DNA of 27,363 nt. Source: a virus. Under the pieces are notes generated by a model. That model was not told where the DNA came from. It saw only the letters and a list, made by a program, of their open reading frames with translations, and did not search any database. Each line of letters opens with the position of its first letter. The stretch's first letter is position 1. The translations under genes and the position numbers were made by a program. Positions 17,306-19,565 of this stretch are shown here, in pieces. The DNA lies in UHGV virus genome UHGV-0044886; one strand, 5' to 3'.

Positions 17306-19565
17306 AAGAGCTGTGCTATGGATCTGTTTGCAGTGGAATTGAAGCCGCGAGTATTGCCTGGGAACCGTTGGGTATGCGTCCGGCGTGGTTTGCTGAAATC
17401 GAGCCTTTTCCATCTGCCGTTCTTGCGCACCGCTGGCCCCATGTCGCCAACCTTGGCGACATGACAAAACTTGCCAAAAAAGTCCTGGCTGGGGAAATCG
17501 AATCCCCTGATGTGCTCGTCGGGGGTACGCCTTGTCAGGCATTCAGTATCGCGGGCTTACGTGGTGGGCTTGATGATGAACGCGGCGCGCTAACTTTGAA
17601 GTATGTGGAGCTTGCAAATGCAATTGACGACAAACGGTCTGAGTCCTTCCTCAAACCGACAGTTATCGTCTGGGAAAATGTCCCAGGAGTCCTGTCATCG
17701 GCAGATAACGCCTTCGGATGTTTCCTTGCCGGATTGGCTGGAGAAGATGCGCCATTTGAACCAGGTGATCGACCTGAATCAGGAAAAAGTAACGCGTTCT
17801 GGCGGTGGGATGGCAAAACCGGTTGCCATGCTCCAAAGTGGCCGCAGTGTGGTTGTATTTATGGACCGCAGCGAAAGGTGGCCTGGAGAATCCTTGATGC
17901 CCAATACTTCGGAGTGGCACAACGACGCCGACGCGTGTTTGTTGTCGCAAGTGCTCGAACAGACCTCGATCCCGCAACGGTACTTTTTGAGTTCGAAGGC
18001 GTGCGCCGGAATATTGCGCCGAGCCGAAAAAAGAAGGAAATCGCTTCCGCCATTATTGCAAATGGCGCTGCAATCAGTGGCGAAAGCCTAAATCCATGCC
18101 TACATGCTGACATGCCACCCGGTATGAAATCGACGAAAGCCGTAAACGCTTTCAGGATGGCAGCATTTGGGGAATATATTGACGATGAAACCGCATCGAC
18201 AGTAAAGGCAAGAGATTTTAAAGATGCCACTGACCTTGCCGTTTTTAGCAGCACAGGAGCAGGTTTTTGGTCAGAAGGGCATGGTACATTGCGGGCACGA
18301 GAGCAAGAAAGCCATGAGCATCTTGTTACATTGGCTTTTCCTGAGCGTATGAGCGGTACACAACATGCTGCAACTAAGAATACTTCACCATCTCTAATGG
18401 CTAAAAATCCAACAGCTGTTTGCTATGAAGTAAGAAACGCAGAAGTAGCTGTCCGCCGTCTTACCCCTGTCGAATGTGAAAGGCTGCAAGGTTTTCCTGA
18501 TGGGCATACGTTGATCCCGACGGAAAAGCGTAAAAAAGTTAATTCAGATGAACTGGCATATCTTCGCAATCACTATCCAGATTTAAGCGAAGAAGAGGCC
18601 GCGATGCTTGCAGCTGACGGACCGCGTTACAAAGCGATCGGCAATAGTATGGCAATACCAGTAATGCGCTGGATTGGCGATCGGATTACTAAGGCCGTAT
18701 GTCGGCAGAAAGAAGGAAGTGAAACAAAAGAGCGAAAAGTTAAACCAGCGGCAGAATTCGAACGGTCCATATTCAAATGGGCTGGTGGAAAATTTGGTGT
18801 TCTGGAACAAATCTTTCGCTATTTGCCAGAAGGGAAGCGCCTGATCGAACCTTTTGTCGGTGGCGGAGCTGTCTTCACGAATGCCGGATACCAGGAAAAT
18901 CTGCTAAATGATGTGAATGCTGACCTGATTAACTTTTACAAGACTCTGCAACGCGAGGCGCATTCACTTATCACACTGGCGCATCGTTTCTTCCAGGACT
19001 ACAACACACAGGAAGGATACCTGGCAGTACGGAATGCGTTTAACAAACAAGTCTATGATGATTTACATCGCGCAGCGGCGTTTTTGTCCTGAACCGACAT
19101 TGTTTTAACGGATTGACGCGTTACAACCAGGCCGGTGAGTTCAATGTCGGTTACGGGAAGTATAAAACTCCGTATTTCCCATTACAGGAGATGGAAGCCT
19201 TCCTCGGTGCGGAAGGGCGGTCTGAGTTTGTATGCGGTGATTTTGCAGCGGTGATTGAAGCTGCCGGAGAAGGAGATGTCATCTTTTGCGATCCGCCGTA
19301 TGAACCGCTTCCAAATACAGAGGGATTCACGAACTATTCCGGTCATGACTTTAAGTTTGAAGAGCAAAAACGCCTGGTGTCTCTGTTGACGGATGCTCAT
19401 CGTCGAGGTGCAAAGGTTCTCATTACTAACAGTGGCGCGCCAAACATCAGAGAGCTTTATCATGACAGTGGCTTCAGAGTGGAACCTCTTTTTGCCAGAC
19501 GTTCTGTGTCTTGTAAGGGGGACACTCGAGGTGTAGCTCATGACGTTTTGGGTGTATTGCTCTAA
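17302..19565 (+). pseudogene. dmt: bifunctional DNA methyltransferase (N-terminal C5-cytosine MTase domain plus C-terminal Dam-like N6-adenine MTase domain), interrupted by a 1-nt frameshift near 19087
   Basis: GTG start 17302 overlaps the hrdC stop. C5-MTase motifs PCQ (GTPCQAFS), ENV (WENVPG), QRR. Dam-like motif I FKWAGGK...EPFVGGGAVF in frame 1; frame 1 stops at 19090-19092, and the Dam continuation (...LNRHCFNGLTRYNQAGEFNVGYGKYKTPYFP...DPPYEP...) resumes in frame 3, ending at TAA 19563-19565. Total span 2264 nt is one short of a multiple of 3. Confidence 0.75.

Follow-up and report, generated by a model that had tools for sequence, protein, structure and literature searches.

The dmt locus of a P1-type phage-plasmid raises the question of whether a bifunctional C5-cytosine and N6-adenine DNA methyltransferase gene, interrupted by a frameshift of one nucleotide, has been inactivated by a recent mutation, has been misrepresented by sequencing or assembly, or still yields an active adenine methyltransferase by recoding or from two separately translated pieces. 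The stretch of DNA analysed (27,363 nucleotides of the virus genome UHGV-0044886, hereafter the window) is a segment of a phage-plasmid (Punavirus, IncY replicon) from a human gut metagenome, and is collinear with approximately 47.7 to 75 kb of phage P1 (NC_005856). Its gene order is icd/ant, kilA, repL, tail and capsid genes, parAB, repA/oriR, uhr-hrdC-dmt, tRNAs, tciA, ban and dbn. The window dmt is orthologous to and syntenic with P1 dmt (Dmt, YP_006537.1; formerly P1 dam), which lies between hrdC/rdgC and the ban operator; the neighbours common to both are uhr-hrdC/rdgC-dmt, followed by the ban operator/promoter, tRNA-Asn, tRNA-Thr, tciA and ban. According to its GenBank annotation, P1 Dmt methylates adenines in GATC and perhaps cytosines at C5. 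The adenine-methylation-dependent oriR of the window contains five GATC (Dam) sites (13721..13775, unstranded; positions 13721, 13728, 13738, 13749 and 13772), which match the five Dam sites annotated in oriR of P1. The first-pass annotation of this DNA, made from the sequence alone, had placed an origin with five GATC sites next door to the methyltransferase; the five sites are present in oriR, but the cluster is located approximately 3.5 kb upstream of dmt and is not adjacent to it.

The window dmt lacks a single T relative to P1 dmt

The window and P1 dmt genes share the same GTG start and the same stop position, and have 99.7% nucleotide identity over the whole gene (2264/2265 nt). The span from start to stop is 2264 nt in the window versus 2265 nt (754 aa) in P1, and the reading frame is 596 codons in the window versus 754 in P1, with one T gone after codon 595. 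Alignment with P1 dmt and its relatives, together with blastn against three close relatives, showed that exactly one base is missing, from a TT doublet at 19087/19088 (19087..19088, plus strand; nt 1786/1787 of dmt). At this site the relatives read GTTTTTGTTCCTG and the window reads GTTTTTGTCCTG, which in codons corresponds to GCG GCG TTT TTG TTC CTG AAC (AAFLFLN) versus GCG GCG TTT TTG TCC TGA, the window having T-C where the relatives have TTC after TTT TTG. The codon lost through the deletion is TTC (Phe). The truncated dmt frame (17302..19092, plus strand) starts at GTG, encodes 596 aa ending ...HRAAAFLS, and is terminated by the premature TGA that results from the frameshift (19090..19092, plus strand). 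The rest of the Dam domain is encoded in the -1 frame relative to the upstream part (19062..19565, plus strand), which is open from 19062, directly after a TGA at 19059-19061, reads FTSRSGVFVLNRHCFNGL, and ends at the normal dmt stop. Within it, an ORF with a TTG start (19113..19565, 150 aa) reads MTRYNQAGEFNV...DPPY.... As the frame stops at codon 596, the window has no uninterrupted ORF of approximately 754 codons encoding both domains and, judged by its reading frames, its dmt is a frameshifted pseudogene or truncated allele and not an intact member of the P1 Dmt family.

These results bear out most of what the first-pass annotation had read from the window: a one-nucleotide frameshift splitting a bifunctional methyltransferase inside its Dam domain, a second frame open from 19062 through DPPY to 19565 (in agreement with the ORF listing), and a single gene of approximately 754 codons once repaired, which is the length of P1 dmt. 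The repairing base had been expected between 19086 and 19089, and the alignment with P1 dmt and its relatives that had been proposed as a check placed the missing T at 19087/19088, inside that interval and within 2 bases. The predicted repair, AAAFL-x-LNRHCFNGL, is restored with x being Phe; however, the codon is TTC, not the TAC that had been given as an example.

The break separates the AdoMet-binding and catalytic halves of the Dam domain

Pfam searches of the two pieces showed that the 596-aa product contains PF00145 (C5 MTase) and positions 1-108 of the 253 positions of PF02086, and that the downstream frame contains PF02086 positions 111-243, whereas both domains are complete in intact P1 Dmt. 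The upstream piece therefore has a complete C5 domain, followed by the N-terminal ~45% of the D12-class Dam domain. The PF00145 match of the 596-aa product (E 9e-37) is the same as that in P1 Dmt, and the C5 motifs are intact in its translation: PC (GGTPCQAFS), ENV (WENVPG), QRRxR (AQRRRRVF) and GNS (AIGNSMAIPV).

Once reconstructed, the Dam domain can be aligned over its full length with E. coli Dam (PDB 2g1p, E 9e-58), a D12-class alpha-group N6-adenine methyltransferase, and the KWAGGK, EPFVGxG, LNRxxxNGLxRYN and DPPY motifs are conserved between this enzyme (PDB 2g1p and others) and the window. Unlike E. coli Dam, the Dam domain of the window forms the C-terminal part of a fusion with a C5 MTase and is broken between its AdoMet-binding half and its DNA-contact and catalytic half. 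Relative to E. coli Dam, the break falls around residues 111-113 (RAVLFL|YLNRYGYNGL), before LNRYGYNGL and DPPY. KWAGGK and EPFVGGGAVF, which are involved in AdoMet binding, remain in the N-terminal piece, while the DNA-contact segment LNRHCFNGLTRYN...GEFNVGYGKY and DPPY are out of frame, in the C-terminal piece; the 19062..19565 remainder holds both the DNA-contact hairpin NRHCFNGLTRYN and the catalytic motif DPPY. No single polypeptide encoded at the locus carries a complete PF02086 domain with both FxGxG and DPPY. Pfam and the E. coli Dam alignment thus agree with the earlier reading that the 596-aa product keeps the C5-MTase domain and the Dam AdoMet motif and loses DPPY.

The deletion recurs across sequencing runs and assemblers

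A break of one nucleotide in a metagenomic contig could reflect a sequencing or assembly error, in which case the true plasmid would carry an intact 754-codon dmt and the T would have been lost in a low-coverage metagenome assembly. Public sequence data were searched for the deleted form. Public gene calls include exactly the 596-aa product on 7 contigs. The window has full (100%) identity with k127_10481 (27,488 nt), a MEGAHIT contig of ENA assembly ERZ913488 (run ERR209709, PRJEB1220), and with a Logan contig of ERR209709, and the same deletion was found in a Logan contig of a second run, ERR209708 (human gut, PRJEB1220), and in a SPAdes contig of ERZ501839 that is 2 SNPs from the window. 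ERR209708, ERR209709 and ERZ501839 are counted here as runs or assemblies, may derive from the same sample or library, and were compared as assembled contigs; in papers searched for run and sample metadata, PRJEB1220 was mentioned at the level of the project only. As two Illumina runs and three assemblers (MEGAHIT, Logan and SPAdes) agree, the reads themselves carry the deletion, and the assembler artefact that had been offered as an alternative for this locus is excluded. Illumina chemistry seldom yields deletions of one base, and the T was lost from a TT doublet and not from a long homopolymer; both a systematic error in the reads and a library-level artefact are unlikely.

The possibility that the assembly was error-prone in general was addressed by a census of indels against the closest relatives, pEH09-18-41_2, FDAARGOS_1289 unnamed3 and P1. 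The T deletion was the sole indel within a coding region in approximately 27 kb, so the assembly is not indel-prone, and a generally error-prone assembly was rejected. The other single-base indels either were intergenic differences in homopolymer length, two of which also occur in a relative, or were located in divergent patches. By contrast, the records ON470615.2 and ON470617.2 have dmt and rdgC each split in several places.

Some observations are in keeping with an error at the level of the reads or the assembly: the deletion was in no other public record searched, coverage was low (SPAdes k-mer coverage of 3.7), the two positions at which the ERZ501839 contig differs from the window indicate some noise or heterogeneity, an intergenic A7 to A6 change at 2069 is likewise unmatched in the three relatives, and in the P1-like ON470615.2 and ON470617.2 dmt and rdgC are split by A deletions that resemble errors. 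Set against the recurrence of the deletion, its sequence context and the absence of any other coding indel in the window, an error at this site is nevertheless unlikely.

The deleted allele is private to one metagenome lineage

The deletion was looked for in approximately 470 PLSDB plasmids and approximately 480 E. coli records, in 18 records of phages, in 80 loci from IMG/VR and in three large collections of contigs. Neither the 469 PLSDB plasmid records nor the 479 records of complete E. coli genomes include a perfect match to a 96-nt stretch across the site, each of them differing by the one gap. The mutant 32-mer was not found in IMG/VR or JGI metagenome contigs, and a pattern accepting either form recovered only the intact 33-mer, three times, from GTDB species genome contigs. 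The TT doublet was intact in all relatives compared that do not derive from the source data (P1-like phage, plasmid and genome records, and IMG/VR loci). Most relatives have an intact gene: the stop-to-stop frame has its full 2268 nt at 40 loci, and at a further 27 it is cut short by nothing but the edge of the locus; other lengths (2022, 3045 and 3291 nt) were also observed. A shared or circulating allele was accordingly rejected, the deleted form having no matches in plasmids, E. coli genomes, IMG/VR, JGI or GTDB. The 124-aa downstream piece was called at two other loci (JGI 3300055909 and SRR21431828), which were rejected as carriers of the allele: both have the intact TT, and the piece is due to N-gaps or other lesions. 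As it occurs in a single metagenome lineage, the allele is recent; together with its recurrence across runs and assemblers, this supports the recent inactivating mutation that had been listed first among the interpretations of the first-pass annotation.

A U-run and hairpin at the break do not form a conserved frameshift signal

A search for slippery-site features, which had been proposed in case the frameshift proved real, identified the heptamer G_UUU_UUG (19080-19086), followed 5 nt on by an 11-bp perfect stem (19080..19153 for the whole element, plus strand; located by folding and by a survey of relatives). The stem pairs AACCGACAUUG (19092-19102) with CAAUGUCGGUU (19142-19152) around a 39-nt loop, and an extended fold of 19075-19175 (101 nt) has a dG of -38.4 and a z of -4.25. 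It is one of no more than 8 inverted repeats of this kind in the window, versus 0.34 expected in shuffles. The shift that would rejoin the two frames is -1, and a slip at the heptamer would yield ...AAAFLVLNRH..., which is one residue off the wild type AAAFLFLNRH. Leaky or programmed -1 frameshifting on G_UUU_UUG, stimulated by the hairpin, would on this basis produce a full-length Dmt with one residue changed, and some Dam activity would persist. The arrangement resembles that of dnaX (A_AAA_AAG and a hairpin) and of IS3-family elements (A_AAA_AAG and a pseudoknot), which likewise combine a homopolymeric run and a stem-loop after 5 nt with a -1 shift, and the start of the stem 5 nt after the heptamer falls within the 5-9 nt at which a downstream stimulatory structure is expected.

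The heptamer, however, is not a canonical X_XXY_YYZ heptamer in the zero frame, as the P-site codon would re-pair to GUU, and, even in the presence of the IS3 pseudoknot, frameshifting on U_UUG in E. coli did not go beyond 1.8-3.6 times the ~0.06% background (PMC4066793). The U-run and the stem are unchanged in all intact relatives and therefore did not evolve for the deletion allele; all of these relatives are in frame, and no frameshift is required or signalled by conservation among the homologues. Stem variants among the relatives were few, consisting of single transitions that preserve G-U pairing or of a broken terminal pair, and no compensatory changes were seen in a haplotype survey of relatives. 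Third-position variability from the heptamer to the stem (8 of 25) was ordinary, with a sliding mean of 9.5 across the Dam domain and 36% of sliding windows having an equal or lower value. In a clade at ~70% identity, the same LNRHCFNG...EFNVGYG peptide is encoded without the stem, and in one member also without the U-run. Haplotypes, folds of this distant clade and third-position variability thus gave no support to the hairpin as a selected RNA element, which was rejected. The window differs from the bacterial -1 signals named above in its non-canonical heptamer, in the lack of conservation of the signal, and in that the frameshift is required in one lineage only.

With an allele that is moreover private, frameshifting of this kind is very unlikely to account for the locus. 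The earlier ranking of a programmed frameshift below the other explanations is upheld by the heptamer, its conservation pattern and the distant clade; a U5-G run and a hairpin are indeed present, but the run is non-canonical and conservation does not mark the pair as a signal. Trace, fortuitous read-through may occur at the adjacent U-run and hairpin, with no sign of selection. That they constitute a weak but genuine -1 recoding site, in the mutant and in wild-type P1 dmt alike, is improbable in the extreme. If this were true, the mutant would regain a low level of near-wild-type full-length Dmt (Phe to Val), wild-type P1 would make a minor C5-only isoform of approximately 603 aa ending ...AAAFL-VPEPTLF*, and dmt would be a recoded gene of which the window allele is a natural inversion of the isoform ratio.

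The downstream frame is a poor candidate for half of a split enzyme

Split methyltransferases occur in nature, and the downstream piece, re-initiated at TTG 19113 or ATG 19191, could conceivably join the 596-aa product as an active Dam. Only 21 nt separate the stop from TTG 19113, a distance at which re-initiation is conceivable, and a 124-aa ORF from ATG 19191, the start chosen by public gene callers, appears in gene calls. Neither start has a good ribosome-binding site: TTG 19113 has no Shine-Dalgarno sequence, and ATG 19191 has an AGGAG that directly abuts it (spacer of 0). The downstream frame had been described as having only a TTG start and no good ribosome-binding site; the TTG indeed has no Shine-Dalgarno sequence, but it is not the sole start, since ATG 19191 exists. 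No promoter-like site was found in 18800-19700, and no internal terminator was found near the break. A product from TTG 19113 would be without LNRHCFNG, a product from ATG 19191 would be without the whole NRHCFNGLTRYNQAGEFNVGYGKY DNA-contact segment, and no relative is split at the same site. A functional split enzyme is, on these grounds, hardly credible.

Predicted consequences of the deletion and dispensability of dmt

Taken together, the locus is very probably the result of a recent, lineage-private, pseudogenising T deletion in the Dam half of Dmt that is tolerated via host Dam. With a real deletion at 19087/19088, translation from the GTG would end after 596 residues. As this product has neither the NRHCFNGLTRYN DNA-contact hairpin nor DPPY, its domain content suggests that the Dam activity of the window Dmt, and with it phage-encoded adenine methylation, would be lost. 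C5 activity may be kept by the truncated protein, given that its PF00145 motifs are intact and that related elements show the two domains to be modular. The element itself would stay viable, since its E. coli hosts are as a rule Dam+ and would supply GATC methylation at oriR and pac.

Tolerance of this kind is in keeping with what has been reported for P1, in which dmt is essential only in Dam- hosts because packaging requires Dam methylation at pac (PMC12707154, citing Sternberg & Coulby 1990). Defective dmt genes are also found in other P1-type elements of natural or laboratory origin, in each case through a lesion other than that of the window: P1 record AF234173 has an internal deletion ('dmt, incomplete'), dmt of pET6.1-IncY (NZ_CP043218.1) is called 'frameshifted' by PGAP owing to a +G at nt 1415, and that of pUTME-8-1 (NZ_CP157116.1) is called 'internal stop' by PGAP, at aa 190. 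E. albertii p2RM15116 has a shortened dmt frame. As dmt is inactivated in otherwise complete P1-like genomes, it is dispensable. In the clade at ~70% identity, Dam is encoded as a stand-alone ORF. A clade-wide Dam pseudogene had been considered for this clade, for which no CDS was listed, and was rejected after ORF listing showed an intact stand-alone Dam; the PLSDB gene table is incomplete at this point.

P1 dmt has been known for decades, and the window allele is new but an ordinary private frameshift, RefSeq already flagging other dmt pseudogenes; its significance beyond annotation is small. In annotation, the locus should be described as a dmt pseudogene with a frameshift, or as a truncated allele that is C5-only, and not as two methylase genes of 596 aa and 124 aa. 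For the biology of these phage-plasmids, it provides one more natural example in which the Dam half of P1 Dmt appears dispensable in Dam+ enterobacterial hosts, and a natural candidate for a C5-only Dmt with which the two activities of the enzyme could be separated.

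Differences between the window and its relatives in the tRNA, ban–dbn and ant–kilA regions

A tRNA-Thr gene (20316-20391) is followed immediately by a 13-bp perfect inverted repeat at 20400-20473, GGTAAGAGCATTT and AAATGCTCTTACC, separated by a 48-nt loop that holds GTTCGACTC, a sequence resembling a tRNA T-arm. Within this repeat, a patch at 20412-20464 does not align to P1 or pEH09-18-41_2, and approximately 248 nt are located at the same position in FDAARGOS_1289 unnamed3. Another tRNA gene, at 21823-21898, was called by ARAGORN as tRNA-Met (CAT); its P1 homologue is annotated as trnI, an ileX-like tRNA-Ile2 with a CAT anticodon that is read as Ile once lysidine-modified.

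An ORF of 100 aa with a match to phrog_12809 (E 9e-46) is located at 23548-23850, with ban (22178-23548) on one side and a dbn homologue of 324 aa (23847-24821) on the other. The ban stop overlaps the start of this ORF, and its own stop is overlapped by the start of the dbn homologue. This segment, approximately 290 nt, is missing from P1 and the two closest plasmids (alignment break at 23558-23847). An intergenic change from A7 to A6 is present at 2069, just 3′ of the ant stop and 5′ of the kilA regulatory GATC sites, and was found in none of the three relatives compared (pEH09-18-41_2, FDAARGOS_1289 unnamed3 and P1).

Variation of dmt and Dam among P1-like elements

Length variants of dmt were drawn from the protein cluster, the phage RCS47 and Ro157c2YLVW matches, and the loci census. 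The encoded protein is found in forms of 754 aa (P1), approximately 673 aa (P7-type; 2022-nt frame) and 1095 aa, the last with an insertion of approximately 340 aa between the query pieces. A separate clade is formed by the ~90-kb phage-plasmids NZ_CP137859.1, NZ_CP027309.1 and NZ_CP069647.1 (rep_cluster_1704), in which Dam is a stand-alone ORF with approximately 70% nucleotide identity to the Dam domain of Dmt, preceded by a separate 226-259-aa ORF 3′ of rdgC. PLSDB gives no CDS across the Dam ORF of these plasmids, yet the ORF is intact. In the two well-annotated members, NZ_CP137859.1 and NZ_CP027309.1, the Dam ORF is followed by a plasmid-borne glnS (glutamine-tRNA ligase).

In two deposited P1-like phage genomes, ON470617.2 and ON470615.2, the dmt frame is broken where single A residues are deleted, at nt 175, 726 and 1231 of the gene, and rdgC is likewise split, into RdgC1 and RdgC2; such a pattern typically reflects uncorrected homopolymer errors rather than biology. 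A P1-like upfA to dmt stretch, with 98.1% identity to window 14036-19891, is present in JAFAFU010000017.1, a 5.9-kb contig listed in GTDB under “MAG: Bacillota bacterium OH_SBlB_19”. Almost certainly, this contig belongs to an enterobacterial phage-plasmid and was mis-binned into the Bacillota MAG.
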